64,000 nucleotides of DNA from Candidatus Omnitrophota bacterium (lineage in GTDB: Bacteria > Omnitrophota > Gorgyraeia > Ghiorseimicrobiales > Ghiorseimicrobiaceae): NCBI GenBank assembly GCA_030681595.1, contig JAUXSB010000061.1, positions 5,392 through 69,391 on the forward strand. The letters run 5' to 3'. This document shows positions 28,111-63,838 of the stretch, in pieces. Numbering within the stretch: the first letter of the stretch is position 1; every line of letters begins with the position of its first letter. Under the pieces are notes generated by a model. That model did no database searches, was not told the DNA's origin, and saw nothing but the letters and a program-made list of their open reading frames with translations. Position numbers and translations under genes: made by a program.

Positions 28111-30144
28111 TTATTCCGCTTCTGTATCGCCATTTCCCAAAGCGATAGCCTCTATCGCTTCCTCAACTTTGCGCTCAATGCTTCTCTCGATGAAACCGGG
28201 TATAGCATCTTGGATTTTTCTCTTAAAATCCGACTTTAGCCATTTAAAATTCATGGCGCTTGATAAACCGGAAAGCTGAAAATCAAAATCTAAAAACGAA
28301 AAATCATCCCTCAAAAGCCTAAGCAGGGGCTTAAATTTAGCCGAATCTTTAATTATATTTTTTGATAGCCGCAATAAGAGTATACTGCTTGCCAAATCGC
28401 TGGTAGAAATCCCGAAATAGCCTTCTAAGCCGACGTCTAAAGACTCTAAATTAATATTATCCAATTTAGCTATCGTATCATCTACTAAAAAATCTGCGGA
28501 AAGCCTATTAAAACCTATGCGGGATAATGACGGCATCCCAAAAAAATCTGCCAGCCATTTAAAAAATTCAAAATTATTTAAACGGCCGTTAGCTATGTTC
28601 ATTACCCCGCTTAGGCTAGGCTGGGGATAATTCTGATAATGAAGCCGGCTGTCCAGCATCCCTTCTACTTTGGAAAAATATACCGATAAAAATTTAAGCT
28701 CATCGGCGCTTACTTTTTTAACATCGAGGTTAAATTCGCATTGAGGCACGGGGCCGTCAATATTAATCTTGCCTTCACCGCTTAAGCGCCCGTCATAAAT
28801 TAATGAATTTAACCCTACCATCCTGATTATTCTTTCCTTAATATTAAATAAGGCGTTAAAATCCCTAAAAAATAAACCATGCATATTGTTTCCCGAGAAA
28901 TACTTGAAATCCGCCTCATCAAAATATATATCCAGATTTTCCCCCGAGCGAAATTTAAAAGCCGCGTTTTTAAACGCCGACTCTATTTTCTGAGGAACGG
29001 TTTTATTTTTAACATTCCTTGCAAAACCCAAAGTTATTTTCCCGTTAAATTTATCTGCGCCTAAATCCCCCAGAATATTAAGGTCAAATGCTAAAGGATT
29101 CTTTCCCCTCTCTTCTGGCGGCTGATAATAATATGTGTAACTGCTTATATTTATAGAGGGCGTGGCAGAAAAGGAAATATTGCCTTTTAGATAAAAAGGT
29201 ATGTCTTTCAGGGAAAACTTTAAACTTTCTATCTCTATATTCTGGGAAGTAAAGACCGCTACCCCGGACATATCAAAAAGATTCAATCCCGGCATGGGCT
29301 TTCTGACAACCTGAACCGCGGCCTGATGCCTGGCAGCCAATGACTTAAACCTATCAATCAGCGGTAGCGTTTTCTCACTAAGGGCGTTGGTGGATAGGCC
29401 GCTGCTTAAAGATAAAAAGCCGTTAAAACGCAAGGCGCTCTTCTCAAAGATACCCCAGAGCTTGGCATAAAAATACTTTCTGCTTACTTCAAGGCTATCC
29501 AAGGCAAATCCTTCGCTGGTTAAATAGCCCTTAAGATCATATTGTAAGGTTTCGGGTTTAATACCCGATAAAACATTCGTTAAATTGATTGATCCGGAGC
29601 TAAGGAAATACCCATGGCCCGCCTTTAGGAAAGCCGTAATTCCGACATGCCTATCCAAATTGCCTTTCTGGGGTAATTTCAAATATGCATTTTTTATACC
29701 TAAATTAAAAAATTTATCCTGCGGGAGGTTTTTTAACAGGTCGGCTAATTTCTGGATATTCTTTTTTAAAAAAGAAATGCAGTCGAGATAATCGCCAGAA
29801 GCTCCATCTATATTTACAGCGCTTACCAAAAAAACCCTTTGGGTTATAAACGCGGGAATAGAAAATGCCAGTTTTACTTTTTTTATAGAAAAAAACGCCG
29901 TTTCTTCAAGAGGTGAATCCCTAAAAACACGGATATCTTCCACGGAAGCCGTGGCCGGAAAATAATACTTTATATTTCCTACGGATACTTTCTGGTTAAT
30001 TTGCCCTGAGATTTCTTTTTCGGCCCTGTGCTTTGAGCCTGTAAGAAAATTATTTATTGCGTTTAAGGAAGCGGAAACTACCCAGAATAAAATAGCGGCA
30101 ACAAGAAGGGACCTAATAATATACTTTCGCAAAAAATAGATCAT
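28111..30144 (-). CDS. AsmA-like large membrane-anchored periplasmic protein
   Basis: 677 aa with a single N-terminal TM helix and a long beta-rich body, similar in architecture to the AsmA family. The family call is tentative. Confidence 0.35.
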   Translation of the reverse strand: MIYFLRKYIIRSLLVAAILFWVVSASLNAINNFLTGSKHRAEKEISGQINQKVSVGNIKYYFPATASVEDIRVFRDSPLEETAFFSIKKVKLAFSIPAFITQRVFLVSAVNIDGASGDYLDCISFLKKNIQKLADLLKNLPQDKFFNLGIKNAYLKLPQKGNLDRHVGITAFLKAGHGYFLSSGSINLTNVLSGIKPETLQYDLKGYLTSEGFALDSLEVSRKYFYAKLWGIFEKSALRFNGFLSLSSGLSTNALSEKTLPLIDRFKSLAARHQAAVQVVRKPMPGLNLFDMSGVAVFTSQNIEIESLKFSLKDIPFYLKGNISFSATPSINISSYTYYYQPPEERGKNPLAFDLNILGDLGADKFNGKITLGFARNVKNKTVPQKIESAFKNAAFKFRSGENLDIYFDEADFKYFSGNNMHGLFFRDFNALFNIKERIIRMVGLNSLIYDGRLSGEGKINIDGPVPQCEFNLDVKKVSADELKFLSVYFSKVEGMLDSRLHYQNYPQPSLSGVMNIANGRLNNFEFFKWLADFFGMPSLSRIGFNRLSADFLVDDTIAKLDNINLESLDVGLEGYFGISTSDLASSILLLRLSKNIIKDSAKFKPLLRLLRDDFSFLDFDFQLSGLSSAMNFKWLKSDFKRKIQDAIPGFIERSIERKVEEAIEAIALGNGDTEAE

Positions 30145-30975: not shown

Positions 30976-32091
30976 TCAAAATCTTGCCGATATACCTATC
31001 TGATTAATTATATTCTTATATTCAGAAAGAGGATTGTTGCTATCCAGGCTCCAGTAGTCAAACCTATAGGATAGAGTGTAATTTTTTGTAAGTGTGTAGT
31101 ACATAGACAGGCGATAATTATACCTATCATCATATTCTGCCATAAATATAGCTTGGCGCTCTTTATAATTTTTTCTCTCAAAATTAGGGGTAAAAGCAAT
31201 ATAAAGACGGTTGTCTTCCAGGAATAGGCCGGCAATAGTCAGAGAACTTTCAAAGGCATAATAATCATTTAAATCCTGAAGCAGGTCATTAGAGGAATTT
31301 CTGGAGGCTTTGCCTTCTAGGGTAATAATATACCTTCCGATATTACGGCTTAAGCCTGCCTCTAGCGCGTAGCGCTCGTCTTGACGCACAAACTCCTGCT
31401 TTACACCGCTGGGGTTTCTGGCTTTTTTGGCATCGTATTCTTTGACGCTATATTCAAAATTTAAATCGCTGTTCCATTCCGACGAGAAAAATGTTTTTGT
31501 GTTAAGAAAATACTTTAGATTATTATAGCTGGAATCTGAGGAAAGGGGATACCAAAGCGTCTCGTAGCCTATCCCCGGCTCAAGGCGTATTCTGCCTTGG
31601 TAGAAAGGATAAAGCCTCGCCGCTGTGCTTACGCTGCTAAAAAGATAATTGCTGTCAGTAAAATCGGAATATAGCTGGTTAAAAGACAATACGTTGGTGT
31701 TTAAGCCGAACCACCTGGTAAATGTCGGCTTCCAGCTAATCATTGCAAATTGAGTATTAAATATATCCCCTTTGTTAGATGAGTCGTTATTAACATTTGT
31801 CTCGTATCCGCTGGAAGCAGAAGCAAATATTTCAAGCCTAAGAAGGCGCTCCTTCTTTCTCTTTTTGATCTTCAGGAACGCTCTTTGCTTAAGCAGCTCG
31901 ATTAACTCGGATGTGGTCTTAGTTTCGGCTATAGCGCTCTGTTTTATGCTGGAAATCTTATCTTCTAACTGAACAGACCTATTTTCGTTCTCATCTGCGC
32001 AAAGGCCTTTTGGGGTATCTAAAAAAATGGTGCTTAGGCAAAGTATAAAAAAAACAAACTGGGCTAATATTTTTTTTAGGCTTATATTCAA
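30976..32091 (-). CDS. Putative outer-membrane beta-barrel protein
   Basis: Signal peptide, alternating hydrophobic beta-strand pattern, and a C-terminal aromatic residue (…GISARF). Confidence 0.35.
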   Translation of the reverse strand: MNISLKKILAQFVFFILCLSTIFLDTPKGLCADENENRSVQLEDKISSIKQSAIAETKTTSELIELLKQRAFLKIKKRKKERLLRLEIFASASSGYETNVNNDSSNKGDIFNTQFAMISWKPTFTRWFGLNTNVLSFNQLYSDFTDSNYLFSSVSTAARLYPFYQGRIRLEPGIGYETLWYPLSSDSSYNNLKYFLNTKTFFSSEWNSDLNFEYSVKEYDAKKARNPSGVKQEFVRQDERYALEAGLSRNIGRYIITLEGKASRNSSNDLLQDLNDYYAFESSLTIAGLFLEDNRLYIAFTPNFERKNYKERQAIFMAEYDDRYNYRLSMYYTLTKNYTLSYRFDYWSLDSNNPLSEYKNIINQIGISARF

Positions 32092-32463
32092 TTATGCCTC
32101 TTATTATTATTCTTGATAAAATCCTATTTTTCGGGGCTCTAAAGAAATATCCCCCGGCTCTGATTTATTGTAGTAGCTAGAGGTATTTTTGTCAACCCCG
32201 TTAGAAATTCCCTGCCATGGCTAATCTTTCTTTGCAAATAAACTCTCTTGAAGCAGTTTCCAATATCCGGTTTTAACCTTTACAATAGTATATAAGAATT
32301 TTCTAACGGGGTCAATATATATTCGCTATTTGCATTTTTGAAGCTATTTTGCTTAACTCTATACCGAACAATGAGTTATATAAAAAAATGCTTTTGGTAT
32401 ACCTCTTGAAAAAACATGCTTTATAGGGTATACTTATAATGTAAAAGGTAAAATATAACTGTA

Positions 32464-32562
32464 AAGGGCAAACTGCGGGAAACCGCAGGACGCAAAGCCT
32501 TGAGCCTAAAGCTCGCCAAAGAATTATGGCGGCAAAGGCAGTCGGTTGCCGGTTAACGCAAA
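32464..32562 (+). promoter_or_regulatory. c-di-GMP-I (GEMM) riboswitch aptamer
   Basis: AGGGCAAAC-UGCGG-GAAA-CCGCAG-GACGCAAAGCC-UUGAGCCUAAAGCUC matches the GEMM consensus: GGCAAAC, a GNRA-tetraloop P1 hairpin, the invariant GACGCAAAGCC, and GCCUAAA in P2. Confidence 0.65.
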
Positions 32563-32616: not shown

Positions 32617-33060
32617 ATGAGAAAAATAACAAAACTAACAATGATAACCGTAAGCCTAATCTGCCTTTTATCTTTACTGGCGCTTCCTGCTTATGCCTTT
32701 GACAAAGCTGAAATGGACCAGGCATTAAGAGAAGAGCTTGCCAAGATACCGGACATGGAAACAAAACAAGCTATCCTTGATGAATACAAAGAGGTTATCC
32801 GCGAAAGGATGCCGGATTTAAACTTAGATGAAGCCACCTGTCAGAGTTGTGAAGAGGATATTAAGGTATTAGAAAATGAATTAGTTATAAACTCTGTCAA
32901 TGGCGTATTAGACGAAGACAAAATACGAAAAGATAGGGAAGTGCTGCCGGAAACCAATACACCTACGCCTGCTCCAACAGTAGTTACCCCGGTCGTGGAG
33001 GTTCCTCCTCCGCCGCCGCCAGTCGCGCCTAAGCCGCCTAAACCACCGTGTGGCTGTTAA
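32617..33060 (+). CDS. Small secreted protein, paralog A (Pro-rich tail ending in CGC)
   Basis: Signal peptide ...ALPAYA, then the conserved module FDKAEMDQALREELAKIPDMETKQAILDEYKEVIRERMPDLNLDEATCQSCEEDIKVLENEL, then PPPPPPVAPKPPKPPCGC. Confidence 0.55.
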   Translation: MRKITKLTMITVSLICLLSLLALPAYAFDKAEMDQALREELAKIPDMETKQAILDEYKEVIRERMPDLNLDEATCQSCEEDIKVLENELVINSVNGVLDEDKIRKDREVLPETNTPTPAPTVVTPVVEVPPPPPPVAPKPPKPPCGC

Positions 33061-33077
33061 TAATCCTGGGGGTTAAA

Positions 33078-33635
33078 ATGAGAAAAATAATCTTTTTATG
33101 TTCTGTGCTCATGCTAGCAGGGATGTTTTGCTGTTTTAAACAAATTTACGCCTTTGACAAAGCTGAAATGGACCAGACATTAAGAGAAGAGCTTGCCAAG
33201 ATACCGGACCTGGAAACAAAACAAGCTATCCTTGATGAGTATAAAGAAGTTATCAGAGAAAAAATGCCGGAGTTAAATATAGATGAGGCAACCTGTCAAA
33301 GCTGTGAAGAGGATATTAAGGTGCTGGAAAAAGAGCTGTTAGCAAGCTTGGACAAAGGAAATATTGATCCTGGGGAATTCTCCGGAGGGAAAGAAAAATT
33401 GCTTGAGAAACAAAAAGTGTACAAAACTATAACTACAAGCAATACTGTAATGCAAGACCAAACCTCATTGAAGACGAGAACTAGGTATTTCGATGCAGAC
33501 GGCAACCCGGCTTGTGGCTGCGACTCTACCGCCACGGCGGTTACAGATCAAGTTGCGGTAACAACACAGGTACCGGTTACAGTAACCACAACATCGACAG
33601 TTGAAGCCGGTGAAACAGTAGCGGCAGCACAATAA
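33078..33635 (+). CDS. Small secreted protein, paralog B (Thr/Val-rich tail, CGC motif)
   Basis: Start at the ATG at 33078 (GGGGG RBS); the track ORF starts earlier. It carries the same conserved module as paralog A, with about 90 percent nucleotide identity over ~190 nt, then ...PACGCDSTATAVTDQVAVTTQVPVTVTTTST. Confidence 0.55.
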   Translation: MRKIIFLCSVLMLAGMFCCFKQIYAFDKAEMDQTLREELAKIPDLETKQAILDEYKEVIREKMPELNIDEATCQSCEEDIKVLEKELLASLDKGNIDPGEFSGGKEKLLEKQKVYKTITTSNTVMQDQTSLKTRTRYFDADGNPACGCDSTATAVTDQVAVTTQVPVTVTTTSTVEAGETVAAAQ

Positions 33636-52053: not shown

Positions 52054-53547
52054 TTAACCACGGATGAGCCTACGCCAGCGCGCGAACCTTATAAGCGCAA
52101 GCCTATCCTGGCTGCGTATACTTTCAAAACTTAATCCTAACATATAACTGCCTTCTGCCTCGGGCAAACTTTTTATCCAGATAAGTTGCGCTTGAGCGGA
52201 AACCGGCTGTTTACTTCTCGGTAAATGAATCCTTAGGAATACCTTTATCTTACCTATGCCTAATCCGCTTATATCCTGCTTTAAAAAATTAACCCTTAAA
52301 GCTACCCCGCCGTATGAAATATCCTGCGTAAATCCCTGCTGCCAAGGAAAGATAATTTCAGCGCCTAATGCGCTTATTCTATTTATCTGGAGCTCAACCG
52401 GAAGGACTGTATCCATGCGCGCGTACTTCCTTCTTTCTTCTCCTTTATAAAACCTTTCCGCCTGCCGGATACGTTTTTCTATCGGCGGATGAGCATATAA
52501 TAAAAATTCTATTATTCTATTCGGGGAAAAATCGGCTAAATTCTTCTCGCCAAGCTTTTTCATCATTGAGATGAAACTTAAAGGGTCGTTAGTTAATTCC
52601 AAAGCAAAGAGGTCGGCGAAACTCTCCCTTCTGCGGCTATAGCCATTTTGAAAAGGCAGGATAAATAAACTAACGATAGAAAGGCCAAACGCCAAGAGCG
52701 GGAAGGCGGCAATATCATAAATCTCTTTAAAGCCAAAACGCGCTAAGGCTGCCCTTAAAAATACGTCGCAGGCAAAGAAAGAAAAAAATGAAAATATGCT
52801 TCCGGCAATTAAGAGCCTTAACGTATCCTTATATACTTCATGGCCTAATTCGTGCGCAACCACTGAACAAACCTGCTCTGTATCAAATTCGTTTACCAGG
52901 TTATCCGCCAGGAGAATCCTGCGGTTTTTGCCTAAACCGCAGACCATTGCGTTAGATTTCTTGGTTTTCTTAGAAAAATCAATAATGAAAATATTTTTTA
53001 TTTTAGAGCCGGATTTATCTACCAGAGAACGAATCCCGGCTTTAAGATTTTCATCTTGGACCGGTGAAGATTTAAAAAAAAGCGGGATAAGTAAAATCGG
53101 GGTAAGTTTTGCAAAAACTACGCTTAAAAATATCCAGAAAAGCGCGGCATATATCCACCAATTATCCTGCGTTTTTCTTAAAAATAAATACAGTACTTCG
53201 GCGGTAACCAAAAATACCAGCAATTCAATTAACTGTTTTTTAAATGTATCTTTTAACCAGGCAGGAAATTTTTGGCTCGACAGGTTAAACTTATGTTCCA
53301 AGATAAAACCTTCATAAAAGCACAAAGGAAAACTCAATAAAAAAGAGGCGCCGTCAAGGATAAAAACATAAATTGCCACCAGCCAGAAACTATTCCGGGT
53401 AAGCAAGATTATCTTTTCTTTCGCATAAACGGACAGGCCGAAGGACAAAAGAAACAATAGCCCTGCCAAAGATAAAACAATATGCGCTAAAAACAGCCAA
53501 TTTTTAATAAGGTGGTATTTTTTTGCGCGGGCTTTGATTTCCTGCAT
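52054..53547 (-). CDS. M48 (HtpX-like) zinc metalloprotease with a C-terminal PilZ domain
   Basis: Multiple TM helices; HELGHE zinc motif; C-terminal RRKYARMD (RxxxR) plus DISYGGVAL (DxSxGG), the PilZ motifs. Confidence 0.6.
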   Translation of the reverse strand: MQEIKARAKKYHLIKNWLFLAHIVLSLAGLLFLLSFGLSVYAKEKIILLTRNSFWLVAIYVFILDGASFLLSFPLCFYEGFILEHKFNLSSQKFPAWLKDTFKKQLIELLVFLVTAEVLYLFLRKTQDNWWIYAALFWIFLSVVFAKLTPILLIPLFFKSSPVQDENLKAGIRSLVDKSGSKIKNIFIIDFSKKTKKSNAMVCGLGKNRRILLADNLVNEFDTEQVCSVVAHELGHEVYKDTLRLLIAGSIFSFFSFFACDVFLRAALARFGFKEIYDIAAFPLLAFGLSIVSLFILPFQNGYSRRRESFADLFALELTNDPLSFISMMKKLGEKNLADFSPNRIIEFLLYAHPPIEKRIRQAERFYKGEERRKYARMDTVLPVELQINRISALGAEIIFPWQQGFTQDISYGGVALRVNFLKQDISGLGIGKIKVFLRIHLPRSKQPVSAQAQLIWIKSLPEAEGSYMLGLSFESIRSQDRLALIRFARWRRLIRG

Positions 53548-58220: not shown

Positions 58221-59042
58221 TTAAACTATTTCCAAATGCAAAATCCCGTCTATCATAAACGTGCGCTCTTCAGCCCTTAAATGGCAATAGCCCACTAAAC
58301 AATACTTTCCTTCCTGTTTTATTATTTCCAGCGGCATAACTTCGCGCTCGGTAAACTCTCCCCGAAAAACAGAAAAATACCTTATCTTCAGCTTTACGCC
58401 TAAGCTTATTGCCTCTTCTATCTCGGCAATCCGTTCGGAAATTGCTTTATCGGTTACTTGCTTATCTATGCAGAATAAATTACAAATATAAGAAAATTCG
58501 TCGTAACCCTGCGCCTTAAATATAGAAAATAGTTTCTGTAAAATTTCAAAGCTCATCTCTACATCATCGGCGGCGCGGTGCTTCTGCGGCTTAGCTATTT
58601 CAAAATGCTTGGCAACTCCGCTTAGTTTATAACTTAATAAATTAGGTATAAGCGCCCGAGCCATCGCTAAGATATCAATGGTCAAGAGCTCACTAGGGAA
58701 TACTTCATTTATTAACTTTAACTCATTTTTCATAAAACTTTCATCAAAATTAGCGTTATAGGCAAAGAGGGCATTCTCCCCTTTTATAAAATCCATAAAT
58801 CTGGGGATAACCTCCAAAGGGGGCGGCGCATTTTCAAGCATCTCACTGGTTATGCCGTTTACGGCAAAAGCACCCCTAGAAACAGAAACTCCGGGGTTAA
58901 TCAAAGAATGAAACCTCTCTATTATATTCGTACCCTCGGCCTTTACGGCGCCGATCTCCACAACCCTGTCTCCCGATTCAGGCTCCAAGCCGGTAGTCTC
59001 CACATCAAAAATGACAAATTTAATTTCAGATAATTTTGCCAT
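58221..59042 (-). CDS. DnaQ-like DEDDh 3'-5' exonuclease with a C-terminal WYL-like domain
   Basis: FVIFDVETTGLEP (Exo I), YNANFDESF (Exo II), HRAADDVE (Exo III). The C-terminal KYCLVGYCHLRAEERTFMIDGI resembles a WYL motif. Confidence 0.65.
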   Translation of the reverse strand: MAKLSEIKFVIFDVETTGLEPESGDRVVEIGAVKAEGTNIIERFHSLINPGVSVSRGAFAVNGITSEMLENAPPPLEVIPRFMDFIKGENALFAYNANFDESFMKNELKLINEVFPSELLTIDILAMARALIPNLLSYKLSGVAKHFEIAKPQKHRAADDVEMSFEILQKLFSIFKAQGYDEFSYICNLFCIDKQVTDKAISERIAEIEEAISLGVKLKIRYFSVFRGEFTEREVMPLEIIKQEGKYCLVGYCHLRAEERTFMIDGILHLEIV

Positions 59043-60387
59043 AGGCTTTCTCCAGAATATAGGCGCTTATTTTCCTTTCCGGGCGGTAAGACAACTTTAC
59101 CTTCCTGATATTTTCCAGCCCGGAATCATCCATCACATTGATATATTTATATTTTTTTAAATCAAGGCAGAATTCTCTAAATAAAAATTGGGCAATACCC
59201 TTAAATTTTAAATCCGCTGTCTCAGCCATTATACAGAAGGTATCATCATTTAGTTCAAAGCCGAAGGTATAGGCCTTAATCTCTGCACCTATCCTGATTA
59301 CCTTTCCCAAAAGCCCAAGCCGGGAAAGATTAAGCAAGGCTTCTTCCTGCGCCAAGCAATTATCATCCAATATGGCATGGTAAAATTCTTTATCGCCTGC
59401 ATCAATCCTTTGCCCCTCTTTATGCAGGCGTTCCTTGCGCCACTCTGCCAAAACGCTTAAACATTCAAACGTATAACCCGGCGTCAGCACCTGGCAGCTA
59501 TATTTATAATTCTTGACAAAATAATTGCAATTTGCGCGCTTCGCCTTAAATTTATCGCCGCAAAGCCCTGCCAAATCATCCCTTAAGTACACATACTCTT
59601 TTTCCTTCGGGATAATCACAAAACCGTTATTTTGACAAGGATCTAATATGCTTTCTTCAATATTCTCTATACGTGAGATGGCCCGGTTAGTATTGCGCGC
59701 GTCCATAATACGGAAACACTCATTAAGCAACTCCTTATCTATCCTTTTACCTAAAGGAGGAAGATACATAAAACACCCGGCCTTATCCTGAAAAAAAACA
59801 CAGAGGCAATCGCCAATAATTTTATAGCGGATATCAAATAACGAACGCCAACTGTAAATATTGGCAAAAGAATATGCAGAGATTTCATGCCCCCTAATTT
59901 TCAGGTATTTTTCAAAAAGCGGCTTATCTTCAATCTTAATGTGGCTGCCTAAAATTTCTCCGTTTAAATTTATTTCTGAGACAATTTTAAGTTCTTCGTT
60001 GTACCGGCAGATCAGGCCCGAATTATCCCGCAAAAATTTTTTTGCCTCGTCGCCGTTTAAAAAATCATTTAAGTAGGAGGCGTAACCCCTGAACTCTTCT
60101 GTATTTATTTTTTGGGACGCATAAAGGCAGTTTAAATCAACGGCAAGGTAAACTTTCCCGCCTTGTCCGTGCAGAATGAACGGATAAATGCGACAGTCAA
60201 GGAAACGCGCCTCATAATTACGGCATTTACGCATAGAGGCTTCAAAAGAGGAACAAATAAAATAATCATTGCAGGAAACAACCTCGCGCTTATACGGCGT
60301 CCACGGCGTATCTTTTTCGCTAAACCTGCAGCAGCCGTCGCATTCAAGGCATATTTCCTGCGGGATAAACTGTTTCACCTGCATCAT
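59026..60387 (-). CDS. Fusion of a YkgJ-type CxxCxxCC Cys-cluster domain and a DUF2156 (MprF C-terminal-like, aminoacyl-tRNA-dependent transferase fold) domain
   Basis: The N-terminal CLECDGCC…C cluster is followed by SAYSFANIYSWR…EYVYLRDDLAGLCGDKFKAKRANCNYF, the DUF2156 hallmark strings. It overlaps both neighbours by 4-17 nt. Confidence 0.55.
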   Translation of the reverse strand: MMQVKQFIPQEICLECDGCCRFSEKDTPWTPYKREVVSCNDYFICSSFEASMRKCRNYEARFLDCRIYPFILHGQGGKVYLAVDLNCLYASQKINTEEFRGYASYLNDFLNGDEAKKFLRDNSGLICRYNEELKIVSEINLNGEILGSHIKIEDKPLFEKYLKIRGHEISAYSFANIYSWRSLFDIRYKIIGDCLCVFFQDKAGCFMYLPPLGKRIDKELLNECFRIMDARNTNRAISRIENIEESILDPCQNNGFVIIPKEKEYVYLRDDLAGLCGDKFKAKRANCNYFVKNYKYSCQVLTPGYTFECLSVLAEWRKERLHKEGQRIDAGDKEFYHAILDDNCLAQEEALLNLSRLGLLGKVIRIGAEIKAYTFGFELNDDTFCIMAETADLKFKGIAQFLFREFCLDLKKYKYINVMDDSGLENIRKVKLSYRPERKISAYILEKAYGKII

Positions 60388-60704
60388 TTTACAATACTCC
60401 CGGGCTTACGCGGCTTATCTACGATAAGGATACTTAAGCCTTCGTCATCAGAGGCGGCTAAAAGCATACCCTGGCTTTCCACTCCGCGCACGGCCTTTGG
60501 CTCTAAGTTATCCACGATAATAACCTGCCTGCCGATTAATTCTTCCGGCAGATAATATGGCCGTATGCCTGCCACCAATTGTTTCTCTGCTCCTCCGGTA
60601 TCAATTTTTAAAACATATAATTTATCGGCATCGGGATGCACGGTAACTTCTTTAATCACCGCCACCTTTAACTCTGTTTTTCTAAATTCATCGTATGTAA
60701 CCAT
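60384..60704 (-). CDS. CsaA/Myf-type tRNA-binding domain protein
   Basis: FRKTELKVAVIKEVTVHPDADKLYVLKIDTG…GIRPYY, the EMAP/CsaA OB-fold signature. Confidence 0.7.
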   Translation of the reverse strand: MVTYDEFRKTELKVAVIKEVTVHPDADKLYVLKIDTGGAEKQLVAGIRPYYLPEELIGRQVIIVDNLEPKAVRGVESQGMLLAASDDEGLSILIVDKPRKPGSIVK

Positions 60705-61114
60705 TATTCCATCCCCCTTATTCTTACGCGCATTTTTTTCTTTTCAGAATGCAGGCGCTTATTTTGCAGTATTTTTTCTTTGGCGCGCCTTGAGCGCCGC
60801 TTTTTTTGCCTACGGATTTTTTCAATCAGCTTTCTTTGAGCGGCAATAAACCCATTTTTCCTTTCCTCAATTAAATCCAGAAGCCGCCTGCGGCCCAAGT
60901 ATCGGTTAAGGCTCTGTGCGCGTTCCTGCTGGCATTTTACTTCTATTCCCGTAGAAATATGCCTTAAATATACGCAGGTAGAGGTTTTATTGACATTCTG
61001 GCCGCCCGGCCCTGAGGAACGGATAAATTTCTCCTCAATGTCTTCCTCGCGCACGCCTAAACTCCGCATCCGCGCGAAAAGTTCCTTTTCCTTCTCTATC
61101 GATACGCTGAACAT
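60704..61114 (-). CDS. arfB: Peptidyl-tRNA hydrolase ArfB (alternative ribosome-rescue factor, GGQ motif)
   Basis: SSGPGGQNVNKTSTCV plus a basic C-terminal tail KKRRSRRAKE. Confidence 0.75.
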   Translation of the reverse strand: MFSVSIEKEKELFARMRSLGVREEDIEEKFIRSSGPGGQNVNKTSTCVYLRHISTGIEVKCQQERAQSLNRYLGRRRLLDLIEERKNGFIAAQRKLIEKIRRQKKRRSRRAKEKILQNKRLHSEKKKMRVRIRGME

Positions 61115-61765: not shown

Positions 61766-63829
61766 TTATTCCTTAAGAAGATTTTTAATATCGGGAAGGG
61801 CCCTGTTTGTTTCTTCTTCGCCTTTTTCAATCAGTGCTTCTATTTTATAAAACTCAAACCAATCCGTGCCTAAGGCAAACGGGCGAATCACAACATCTGC
61901 CATCTGGCAATTTGATTCGGAGACAGCCGACTCTAAAGTTTGGATGCTGTTAACAATCACGTCGAATATATTAGGGAAAAACGTATTCTTCATGCGGACT
62001 TTTAAACGATAGGCTATTTTAGCAAAAAACCCTTTTGCCTTTGCCTGTTTCATTGACGCTTCTAATTGTTTTTGGTTAAACTCGTAATTCTGCAGTATAT
62101 GTTCCGGCCGCGGCAGAGTATCCACCGCGATTATCTTTTTTATCCCCATCTTAACTAATGTAGCTATCGGCACAGGCTCAATAATTCCGCCGTCGACAAG
62201 CAGGTCGCCGTTTACTTTTACAGGCGCAAAAAGCCCCGGAATAGCAATGCTTGCCATCACCGCGTCCACCAAGCTGCCTGAGTCAAAAATGAATTTGCTT
62301 CTCTTGCTGATATTGCATGCCACTATTCTAAGCGGAAGATGGCTGTCCTGAAATGTCTTTTTACCGATAACTTTATGCAAAAATTTCTTTATCCTTTTTC
62401 CTTTGGCAAAGGACAATTTAGGAAAGCAAAAATCCAGTAAAAGATGAAATACTTTCCGGGGGCTGTTAAATTCCATGAGAACTTTCTCCAGCTCGCTGCT
62501 ATTTAAGCCTACCGCCCAAAAAGCCGCGATCAAAGCACCCATACTTGAGCCCACCACTACATCAATCGGAATATTCTCCCGCTCAAGTACCTTGATTACC
62601 CCGACATGCGCTAAACCAAAAGCCGCCCCTCCGCTTAACGCCAGCCCCACACGCACATCGCCAATTTCGCGGACAATCCGGCGCAGGATTTTCTTGTATT
62701 CATCTTCAAGGCGCTGCCGCGCGGCTTTATCTTCATGGCTATCACTCCAAAACATCGGCAAGGCGGCATATATTTTATTTCCCAAAGCACCGGAAGCCTC
62801 TTTAACAGAAAGGCAATCCTGCCCGTTTTTCTCATTAATAACTATCTTGAGCTTATCCTGGGGTAAATTTATCTTCGTGCGTAAATCGTCTATTAAAACC
62901 TTGGTCTTGGCTAAATTCTCAATATGGTTATCCGTGACTATGTTGACAATATCCGACTGCCGCAGCGCCTGATAGACCACTTCATCCGGCTCTGCCAGAA
63001 GATCAACTACAACGTAGTGATATTCTCCGGCAAGCTGGGTTAAAAGCGCACTTAAGTTAGCGGTATATCTTCCGTCGGTATGCTCGTGCGCTACATTTAA
63101 GATATCCAAACCGCTAGGCTCATCTTTTATGATGGCGCTTTGAATAACCTTACTTGTAAAGAAAGGCGTATCCAGCTTTATTACCGGCAAATCACTGTTA
63201 TCTGCTTTACTGATATCCATGGCACGGCATACTTCATTCGCTTTTTTGCTTATATCTAAAAGAAGGACGTTCCGCTCGGTTTCCTTCTTTAAATTTAAGG
63301 CGAGATTAACCGCGTATCTGGTGCGGCCGATGCCCCTTACGGCGCTGAAAATCGAAATGATATTGCTTTCAAAGATCCTTTTTTCCTCGGTGTCTTTTTT
63401 TCTCAGGCGCCGGGATAAAGTCTTGCTTAAATCAATAGCTAAATGCGGAATATGGCTTAAAATTATCTGAAAATCATCTTTCTCAATCTTTAAAATTTTA
63501 GAGTCATTGGCGGCAATGGCATTTACCGAATGAGAATCCCCCGTAAGCAAAGAAATAATCCCGAAGTAATTCCCGCAATGCAGGTATTCCAAGGTTTCAT
63601 TTTTTCGCTTCCCGCTTACAATACGCACCCTGCCCGTGATTACGCAGTAGAAAGCATCCGGAGGGTCAAATTCTTTATAAATTAAATCGTCTTTTTTATA
63701 CTCAACTACTTTGCTTCTCTCGATGATTAAATTTTTTTCAAACAGGTTAAGGTTAGAAAAAATCGGCGCGTAATCAACGATAAACGATTTATCCAGGTCT
63801 TTCTTAAAAATACCAAAAGGCAGATTCAT
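61766..63829 (-). CDS. NTE-like protein: cyclic-nucleotide-binding domain, a degenerate P-loop-like middle region, and a patatin-like phospholipase domain
   Basis: N-terminal cNMP-binding beta-barrel (…GNYFG…RSATV-type region). Patatin motifs GLALSGGAAFG and GSSMG (GxSxG), with an Asp in DGG. The ATG at 63829 is preferred over the track's GTG at 63838. Confidence 0.7.
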   Translation of the reverse strand: MNLPFGIFKKDLDKSFIVDYAPIFSNLNLFEKNLIIERSKVVEYKKDDLIYKEFDPPDAFYCVITGRVRIVSGKRKNETLEYLHCGNYFGIISLLTGDSHSVNAIAANDSKILKIEKDDFQIILSHIPHLAIDLSKTLSRRLRKKDTEEKRIFESNIISIFSAVRGIGRTRYAVNLALNLKKETERNVLLLDISKKANEVCRAMDISKADNSDLPVIKLDTPFFTSKVIQSAIIKDEPSGLDILNVAHEHTDGRYTANLSALLTQLAGEYHYVVVDLLAEPDEVVYQALRQSDIVNIVTDNHIENLAKTKVLIDDLRTKINLPQDKLKIVINEKNGQDCLSVKEASGALGNKIYAALPMFWSDSHEDKAARQRLEDEYKKILRRIVREIGDVRVGLALSGGAAFGLAHVGVIKVLERENIPIDVVVGSSMGALIAAFWAVGLNSSELEKVLMEFNSPRKVFHLLLDFCFPKLSFAKGKRIKKFLHKVIGKKTFQDSHLPLRIVACNISKRSKFIFDSGSLVDAVMASIAIPGLFAPVKVNGDLLVDGGIIEPVPIATLVKMGIKKIIAVDTLPRPEHILQNYEFNQKQLEASMKQAKAKGFFAKIAYRLKVRMKNTFFPNIFDVIVNSIQTLESAVSESNCQMADVVIRPFALGTDWFEFYKIEALIEKGEEETNRALPDIKNLLKE

Positions 63830-63838
63830 AGCTATCAC

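Follow-up and report, generated by a model that had tools for sequence, protein, structure and literature searches.

A soluble DUF2156 tandem-GNAT protein paired with a YkgJ cysteine-cluster domain in a conserved gene block of Omnitrophota

The DNA analyzed here (hereafter the window) is a stretch of 64,000 nt from the genome of Candidatus Omnitrophota bacterium (assembly GCA_030681595.1, contig JAUXSB010000061.1, positions 5,392 to 69,391 of the forward strand). We focused on a block of four co-directional open reading frames (ORFs) on its minus strand (58221-61114), the third of which encodes a fusion of a YkgJ-type cysteine-cluster domain to a DUF2156 domain (Table 1). The comparisons described below indicate that this protein is the fused form of a soluble two-part enzyme, which is conserved across Omnitrophota and is also found in Poribacteria and Edwardsbacteria. 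As described in the initial annotation, the four genes overlap end to start, by 1 nt (TAATG), 4 nt (ATGA) and 17 nt in gene order, and the domain calls made there, namely GGQ RF-1, tRNA_bind, YkgJ::DUF2156 and DEDDh exonuclease with WYL, all hold by Pfam matches, motifs or orthology. The block is embedded in a longer run of tightly packed co-directional genes, with a patatin-cNMP protein and a VTT/DedA protein encoded upstream and PabB-like, class IV aminotransferase and DUF3857-transglutaminase genes downstream. No tRNA gene or structured RNA was detected within the operon, and a scan for promoters and terminators gave signals near the genes that were not above shuffled expectation.

Table 1. 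Features of the four-gene block, with coordinates in the window
Feature	Coordinates	Strand	Remarks
GGQ RF-1-domain protein, ArfB / C12orf65-MTRFR-like	60704..61114	-	136 aa; Pfam RF-1 4.9e-22
Free-standing tRNA_bind OB-fold protein, Trbp111 / MetRS C-terminal type	60384..60704	-	106 aa; PF01588 7.7e-28
YkgJ::DUF2156 fusion ORF	59026-60387	-	453 aa
YkgJ-type cysteine-cluster domain (CxxCxxCC, PF03692), fusion residues 1-148	59944..60387	-	eight conserved Cys
DUF2156 (LPG_synthase_C) tandem-GNAT domain, fusion residues 149-453	59026..59943	-	PF09924; catalytic module
Exonuclease-WYL ORF	58221-59042	-	273 aa
DEDDh (DnaQ/PolC-type) 3'-5' exonuclease domain, residues 1-185 of 273	58488..59042	-	RNase_T 5.3e-34
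WYL domain, exonuclease protein residues 186-273, plus stop codon	58221..58487	-	Pfam WYL 1.7e-11

The assignment of the C-terminal module of the fusion to DUF2156 was confirmed by both profile and fold searches. The module matches PF09924 over nearly the full model (1.5e-29, 103.4 bits against a cut-off of 27.5 bits; residues 168-445, model positions 7-297 of 298), and the same family was present in all homologues. In public databases, proteins of this type are named either 'phosphatidylglycerol lysyltransferase domain-containing' or 'DUF2156 domain-containing'. The AF2 model of the module (predicted local distance difference test score, pLDDT, 89.2) has a tandem GNAT fold, and a Foldseek search against the PDB returned BT_3689 (2HQY) at the top with an E-value of 2.5e-22, a template modelling (TM) score of 0.83 and 28% identity. 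The C-domains of MprF came next (E ~1e-11 to 1e-9, TM-score ~0.6, 10-16% identity), followed by the tRNA-dependent peptide synthases Sbb17/Sba18 and then FemX, and the Foldseek probability was 1.0 for all of these. When a sequence profile built from 54 homologues was compared with the PDB, 2HQY was the sole structure detected (3e-48). The fusion contains no transmembrane segment, the maximum Kyte-Doolittle value over 19-residue windows being 1.12, and is thus not a membrane enzyme of the MprF type.

The N-terminal module carries the motif C13-LE-C16-DG-C19-C20 followed by C45, C55, C65 and C87. All eight cysteines are invariant in an alignment of 18 N-domain sequences; in the alignment of 23 fused homologues, C13 and C16 fall just short of invariance (≥90%). 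The N-domain of the window protein matched PF03692 below threshold (E=0.022, 15.9 bits against a cut-off of 23 bits), while 16 of 18 orthologous N-domains matched this family at E<=0.01 (best 1.7e-9), and the separate upstream gene in loci where the two modules are split encodes a clear PF03692 protein. We therefore assigned the window N-domain to the YkgJ family by orthology. The AF2 model of the module (pLDDT 87.5) matched nothing in the PDB at E<=0.001, indicating a fold without a solved representative. Since the module is acidic (isoelectric point, pI, ~5.5), it is unlikely to be a nucleic-acid-binding domain. In the flagellin lysine methyltransferase FliB, which has eight conserved cysteines, an N-terminal CX4CX3CC motif binds an oxygen-sensitive [4Fe-4S] cluster, and this motif has been likened to the CX2CX2CC motif of PF03692 (PMC8598068). 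By analogy, the eight-cysteine YkgJ domain presumably holds an iron-sulfur (Fe-S) or zinc centre.

To place the fusion in its genomic context, we surveyed one genome per GTDB species. Scanning the genome contigs with a single protein as the query gave no match, and an alignment had to be used as the query; the alignment-based scan yielded 391 relatives, of which 80 species-level loci were kept, and locus counts were obtained by mapping the window proteins onto all ORFs of the surveyed loci. The loci belong mostly to Omnitrophota, with seven from Poribacteria, one from Edwardsbacteria and one from a contig labelled Margulisiibacteriota. The last was discarded as an example from an independent phylum: the contig ends 70 nt upstream of the YkgJ gene, and because its gene context exactly matches that of an Omnitrophota-like contig, it provides no independent evidence.

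YkgJ and DUF2156 were fused or adjacent in 79 of the 80 species loci. The fusion itself is the minority state (5/80); the two genes are split but adjacent in 74 loci, and the YkgJ domain is absent from one. In a neighbor-joining tree of the DUF2156 domain, fused forms were scattered among split ones in three or more distinct clades, the clade of the window protein being sister to split genes. This distribution implies repeated fusion or fission, a classical sign that two proteins are parts of one enzyme. In support, a search of 1.84 billion representative sequences with the YkgJ N-domain profile recovered 182 clusters (50% identity) at E<=1e-30, which consist of stand-alone proteins of ~165 amino acids or DUF2156 fusions of ~450 amino acids and show no other recurrent partner. 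We also sought other fusion partners by scanning YkgJ-subfamily proteins of atypical length against Pfam, and DUF2156 was the only partner identified (5/10). Two proteins carry unassigned extra regions: P0487 (562 amino acids) and P0375 (556 amino acids) have ~200-400 additional residues without a Pfam domain, which may be other partners, and in P0487 this region lies before the cysteine domain. Taken together, YkgJ and DUF2156 very probably form one functional unit. Such a fusion is not known to have been characterized, and our search of the available literature library found no publication connecting YkgJ or CxxCxxCC proteins with DUF2156.

The gene order around this pair is kept widely beyond the window genome and the DUF2156 assignment stands, so that neither of the outcomes named as refuting in the initial annotation was observed. 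The conserved unit is not, however, the four-gene operon of the window: it consists of tRNA_bind, YkgJ, DUF2156 and a DEDDh exonuclease with or without WYL. The adjacency of the tRNA_bind gene and that of the exonuclease gene were each counted over 74 species loci with sufficient flanking sequence. The tRNA_bind gene, the commonest upstream neighbor, is located immediately upstream of the YkgJ gene in 48 of 74 loci, and in 33 of these the two genes share 4 nt in an ATGA-type overlap; seven loci have it at another position, and 19 lack it. The exonuclease gene immediately follows DUF2156 in 53 of 74, most commonly with an 8-nt overlap, and 41 of these adjacent exonucleases have a WYL domain and 12 do not. 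Relatives at 84%, 55% and 53% identity retain the order VTT - RF-1 - tRNA_bind - fusion - exonuclease - PabB - PabC - DUF3857, and a relative at 37% identity retains fusion - exonuclease/WYL - PabB - PabC - DUF3857 without an adjacent RF-1 or tRNA_bind gene. Three free-standing DUF2156 genes encoding 300 amino acids are arranged in the order tRNA_bind (106 amino acids) - CxxCxxCC gene (153-175 amino acids) - DUF2156 - RNase_T with or without WYL, and the genes around these three loci are entirely different. Since the gene preceding tRNA_bind belongs to 24 different, unrelated families across 44 loci, the block has outlived many rearrangements.

In Poribacteria and Edwardsbacteria, only the YkgJ and DUF2156 pair is retained, with neither tRNA_bind nor exonuclease beside it. 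The pair is followed in Edwardsbacteria by rimP-nusA-infB. In Poribacteria, a thiamine pyrophosphokinase-like gene (TPK_catalytic 2.4e-14) stands after the pair in place of the exonuclease (L037 7478-8191 and L045 7497-8288). We also noted that a protein of ~500 amino acids without a clear Pfam family is encoded on the same strand before tRNA_bind in 16 of the 44 loci (L022 4159-5667, L069 4137-5651 and 14 others); one member of this group has a weak Alginate_exp match, and the group may represent outer-membrane beta-barrels.

The small protein at the head of the conserved unit had been annotated as a CsaA/Myf tRNA-binding protein. It does belong to the tRNA_bind family, but its type is that of Trbp111 and the C-terminal domain of MetRS, not of CsaA. 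Its best PDB matches are the MetRS C-domain of P. abyssi (1mkh, 9.5e-31) and Trbp111 (1pyb, 2.3e-23), far ahead of CsaA structures (1e-7 to 1e-9). Consistently, the NCBIfam model metG_C_term scored 109.8 bits, just below its cut-off of 116.65 bits, and the CsaA model TIGR02222 scored only 51.5 bits against 119.65 bits, by which CsaA identity was rejected. At another Omnitrophota locus (L005 1529-3562, plus strand, GCA_028707125.1), we observed a PheRS beta subunit of 677 amino acids that lacks the N-terminal tRNA_bind (B2) domain, B3_4 starting from residue 100. Free-standing tRNA_bind proteins in Omnitrophota may offset such domain losses in synthetases.

The exonuclease encoded at the other end of the unit retains all of its catalytic residues (D13, E15, D100, H155 and D160). 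Its best PDB match is the PolC exonuclease of T. maritima (2p1j, 4.6e-31), with E. coli epsilon at ~5e-15; Pfam places WYL at residues 205-271, and this domain matches the one in PafBC (6sj9, 6.7e-9). Proteins with the exonuclease-WYL architecture vary very little around 273 amino acids, and every named example is from Omnitrophota. Nothing among its sequence and structure matches separates an RNA from a DNA substrate. We also considered a role of the block in anti-phage defence. In PADLOC, the exonuclease matched generic DEDDh and WYL accessory models only and the other three proteins gave no match, no relatives of the transferase were found in viral contigs, and the chromosomal context is conserved and housekeeping-like; this possibility was therefore ruled out.

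The first gene of the window block bears on the ribosome-rescue part of the theme proposed for the operon, which gained no support. An ArfB-like GGQ gene is adjacent in only 2 of the 80 species loci, both in the window's own clade (L001-L004, L011 and L012), where it directly precedes the gene for the tRNA-binding protein. We therefore excluded it from the conserved block and regard it as a lineage-specific neighbor. The label ArfB also needs qualification. The protein is indeed a GGQ RF-1-domain protein, with GGQ at residue 37 and a C-terminal tail rich in lysine and arginine (pI 10.95 for the protein), but its best solved relative is human C12orf65/MTRFR (7a5h_C, 2e-19, residues 19-123), E. 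coli ArfB matching at 1e-7 over the N-terminal part only. The ArfB equivalog of NCBIfam reached 60 bits, below the cut-off of 100 bits, with residues 17-52 aligned. MTRFR rescues split large ribosomal subunits together with an RNA-binding partner.

The main pathway known for diverting aminoacyl-tRNA to lipids and small molecules is that of the DUF2156 enzymes. All of the biochemically characterized members, MprF, ErdS, ErgS and VlmA, use aminoacyl-tRNA (PMC8913301, PMC2922099), and the basic helix that separates their two GNAT halves has been implicated in binding of the tRNA acceptor arm in aminoacyl-phosphatidylglycerol synthases (aaPGS) and ErgS (PMC8913301). In the region of the corresponding helix of the window protein (278-293), G277, K281 and R284 are invariant in both the 23 fused homologues and the 54 homologues, N288 is invariant in the former and conserved at ≥90% in the latter, and K283 is conserved at ≥90% in the fused homologues. 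The DUF2156 domains of Omnitrophota have a basic median pI of 9.1 (n=77), in contrast to the acidic BT_3689 group (~5.3, n=118), and BT_3689 lacks a basic residue at eight positions where one is conserved in the Omnitrophota clade: R239, K261, K281, K292, R320, K396, R404 and K/R438. Because of these clade-specific basic residues and the translationally coupled tRNA_bind gene, a link to tRNA is the best reading of the locus; we judge the involvement of tRNA in any capacity to be slightly favored, and its use as the aminoacyl donor to have a little less than an even chance.

Several observations weigh against a tRNA-dependent transferase served by its neighbors. The MprF chains in the PDB were not detected at E<=1 with the profile of 54 homologues, so that MprF is reached by fold only. 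The closest structure, BT_3689/2HQY, was reported in 2023 to have acetyl-CoA in its active site, and in H. pylori, deletion of the DUF2156 gene HPB8_1270 was reported to cause a partial decrease in acetylation at four RNase J lysines (PMC10700544). For these reasons, the step from DUF2156 to aminoacyl-tRNA transfer made in the initial annotation is plausible in view of the basic helix and the tRNA_bind gene but insecure, and it is not a safe rule for this clade. The donor chemistry could match that of BT_3689, since the core residues R284, N288, E389, D392, N417, K431, S433 and P436 are common to both proteins; a GNAT motif-A-like loop, K-x-K-G-[LI]-[AS], is also conserved at residues 394-399. 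On the side of the neighbors, tRNA_bind (19/74) or the exonuclease (20/74) is missing beside the pair in about a quarter to a third of Omnitrophota loci, as both are in Poribacteria and Edwardsbacteria, and part of the linkage may be inherited synteny, because the block runs on into PabB-PabC-DUF3857 in many genomes. The tRNA_bind protein may moreover be a general housekeeping factor, given that at least one Omnitrophota PheRS beta subunit lacks this domain.

The strongest of the alternatives, which we nevertheless consider somewhat unlikely, is an acyltransferase that would use acetyl-CoA or another acyl-CoA, as proposed for BT_3689 and HPB8_1270, to acylate a protein, a small molecule, tRNA or aminoacyl-tRNA; if the acceptor were tRNA or aminoacyl-tRNA, it is this acceptor, and not the donor, that the tRNA_bind protein would bring in. 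Apart from the acetyl-CoA reported in 2HQY, by far the closest solved relative, the H. pylori acetylation phenotype, the common core residues and the conserved motif-A-like loop, this alternative draws on the gene neighborhood in Bacteroides, where the BT_3689 orthologue directly precedes a second GNAT gene (Acetyltransf_9) near lrgAB and pta-ackA (L091 5001-6948), which gives the BT_3689 clade an acetyl-metabolism context. However, the acidic Bacteroides clade has no YkgJ partner, BT_3689 has aspartate in place of K396 of the motif-A loop and differs at seven further conserved basic positions, the case from H. pylori is built on a partial effect observed in vivo in a deletion mutant and not on enzymology, and every enzymatically characterized DUF2156 protein uses aminoacyl-tRNA. 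It is also unlikely, to our judgment, that only YkgJ and DUF2156 cooperate and that the rest are housekeeping genes unrelated in function, kept together as synteny inherited within Omnitrophota. In that case, tRNA_bind would be a general trans-acting cofactor for synthetases without that domain, the exonuclease would serve in DnaQ-type DNA proofreading or repair, and PabB and PabC make p-aminobenzoate. This explanation fits the frequent extension of the block to PabB-PabC-DUF3857/transglutaminase, the tight packing of co-directional genes along the whole strand, the retention of only the pair outside Omnitrophota, the proximity of the exonuclease to PolC/epsilon proofreading domains and its annotation in the Pol III epsilon family, the near-threshold score of tRNA_bind as a MetRS beta subunit and the PheRS beta subunit of L005. 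On the other hand, adjacency with start/stop overlaps survives ~35-50% protein identity and the exchange of 24 upstream families, a pattern typical of genuine operons, PabB and PabC are found with the pair less often than tRNA_bind and the exonuclease, and chance would hardly account for a tRNA-binding protein next to a member of a transferase family that depends on tRNA.

Two further possibilities appear much less probable. Peripheral lipid aminoacylation like that of MprF, carried out without a membrane domain as by fungal ErgS and perhaps with the neighboring DedA/VTT protein as the flippase in the window genome, is very unlikely. It is suggested by the Pfam family and by the name 'phosphatidylglycerol lysyltransferase domain-containing protein' used at NCBI, the free-standing DUF2156 protein ErgS does modify a lipid without transmembrane helices (PMC8913301), and in the window's clade the genes immediately upstream include those for VTT/DedA and a patatin phospholipase. 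Nevertheless, the fusion has neither a transmembrane nor a flippase domain, MprF is missed by the sequence profile and resembles the window protein with TM-scores of only ~0.6, a VTT neighbor occurs at only 3 of 90 loci, and an obligate YkgJ partner is not known in lipid aminoacylation; an MprF-type membrane enzyme in particular was ruled out by the lack of a transmembrane segment and of a sequence-level match. We regard as similarly remote a new kind of nucleic-acid-modifying enzyme combining a YkgJ Fe-S centre with a tandem GNAT. In an Elp3-like version, it would be a tRNA modification enzyme that joins an Fe-S cluster with a GNAT active site. In a Mom-like version, it would use aminoacyl-tRNA to decorate tRNA, RNA or DNA; Mom of phage Mu is a GNAT enzyme that takes Gly-tRNA as the donor to modify DNA adenine (PMC13219725). 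In both versions, the Trbp111-like protein would hold the tRNA and the DEDDh-WYL exonuclease would process or proofread the modified nucleic acid at its 3' end.

The explanation that we favor, although only tentatively, is a soluble transferase composed of a YkgJ metal-cluster module and a DUF2156 module, which in Omnitrophota works with a dedicated Trbp111-like protein, draws on aminoacyl-tRNA as the donor and probably acts on a non-lipid acceptor. We infer that the DUF2156 module would bind the acceptor arm of tRNA through the invariant basic inter-GNAT helix and the other clade-specific basic residues, take the aminoacyl group from aminoacyl-tRNA and pass it to an acceptor that is probably non-lipid and cytoplasmic. 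The co-translated 106-amino-acid Trbp111-like protein could bind the tRNA elbow and thereby present the tRNA in trans. The putative YkgJ centre may function in acceptor binding, in redox gating or as a structural element. The presumably co-transcribed DEDDh exonuclease, usually equipped with a WYL domain that would bind single strands, might process the 3' ends of tRNA or other nucleic acids or have an unrelated DNA function. The ArfB/MTRFR-like gene is a clade-specific neighbor outside this module.

Elsewhere in the window, two genes flanking the block encode unusual signalling fusions, each of which is also present in related genomes. In one, cNMP-binding and AAA_31 (ParA/MinD-like) domains precede a patatin phospholipase (61766-63838, minus strand); in the other, an M48 (CAAX-type) peptidase ends in a PilZ domain (52054-53547, minus strand). 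A c-di-GMP-I riboswitch aptamer was detected at 32457-32553 on the plus strand (70.3 bits against a gathering score of 35), and the next large plus-strand ORF after it (33048-33635, 195 amino acids) has no Pfam match. Two minus-strand ORFs, 28111-30144 (677 amino acids) and 30976-32091 (371 amino acids), gave no Pfam match at E<=1e-5.

These results define the locus as an uncharacterized, conserved variant of DUF2156 tandem-GNAT transferases with a cysteine-cluster partner and a characteristic operon in one phylum. They give one subfamily of the uncharacterized YkgJ proteins its first concrete partner, and a phylum-wide clade of soluble DUF2156 proteins would extend this enzyme family to new chemistry or regulation. 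If the donor is acyl-CoA, tRNA dependence could not be safely annotated from DUF2156, and the name 'phosphatidylglycerol lysyltransferase domain-containing protein' would be misleading for hundreds of Omnitrophota proteins.

Compared with known systems, the DUF2156 module shares the Pfam family PF09924, the tandem-GNAT fold and the basic inter-domain helix with the C-domain of MprF-type aaPGS enzymes, the founding members of this family, but instead of a membrane flippase domain it has a YkgJ partner, either N-terminal or adjacent. BT_3689 (2HQY) and H. pylori HPB8_1270 are closer in being free-standing soluble tandem-GNAT DUF2156 proteins of ~300 amino acids, and BT_3689 is the best match in both sequence and fold; the Bacteroides gene, however, has no YkgJ partner and neither a tRNA_bind nor an exonuclease neighbor. 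ErgS, ErdS, VlmA, Sbb17/Sba18 and FemX are likewise soluble tandem-GNAT enzymes, free-standing or fused, that divert aminoacyl-tRNA to acceptors other than phospholipids, and the fusion of ErdS to the tRNA-handling AspRS is conceptually similar to the tRNA-binding linkage seen here (PMC8913301, PMC2922099), but none of them has a YkgJ/Fe-S or Trbp111-type partner or a linked exonuclease. The tRNA_bind protein resembles Trbp111 and the C-terminal domain of MetRS (MetRS beta) in its oligonucleotide/oligosaccharide-binding (OB) fold of ~106-111 amino acids and its G-x-E-S-Q-G-M-L-L motif, whereas its gene heads the YkgJ-DUF2156 block and is translationally coupled to it rather than being associated with metG. 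The YkgJ module shows the CxxCxxCC motif followed by further conserved cysteines that is typical of the PF03692 family, with eight in total as in FliB, although no evidence of S-adenosylmethionine use was found for the window module. Finally, Mom of phage Mu provides a precedent for a nucleic-acid acceptor, combining a GNAT fold with an aminoacyl-tRNA donor and an unconventional acceptor (PMC13219725), but it is a single-domain, sequence-unrelated viral GNAT, and relatives of the window protein were not found in viral contigs.

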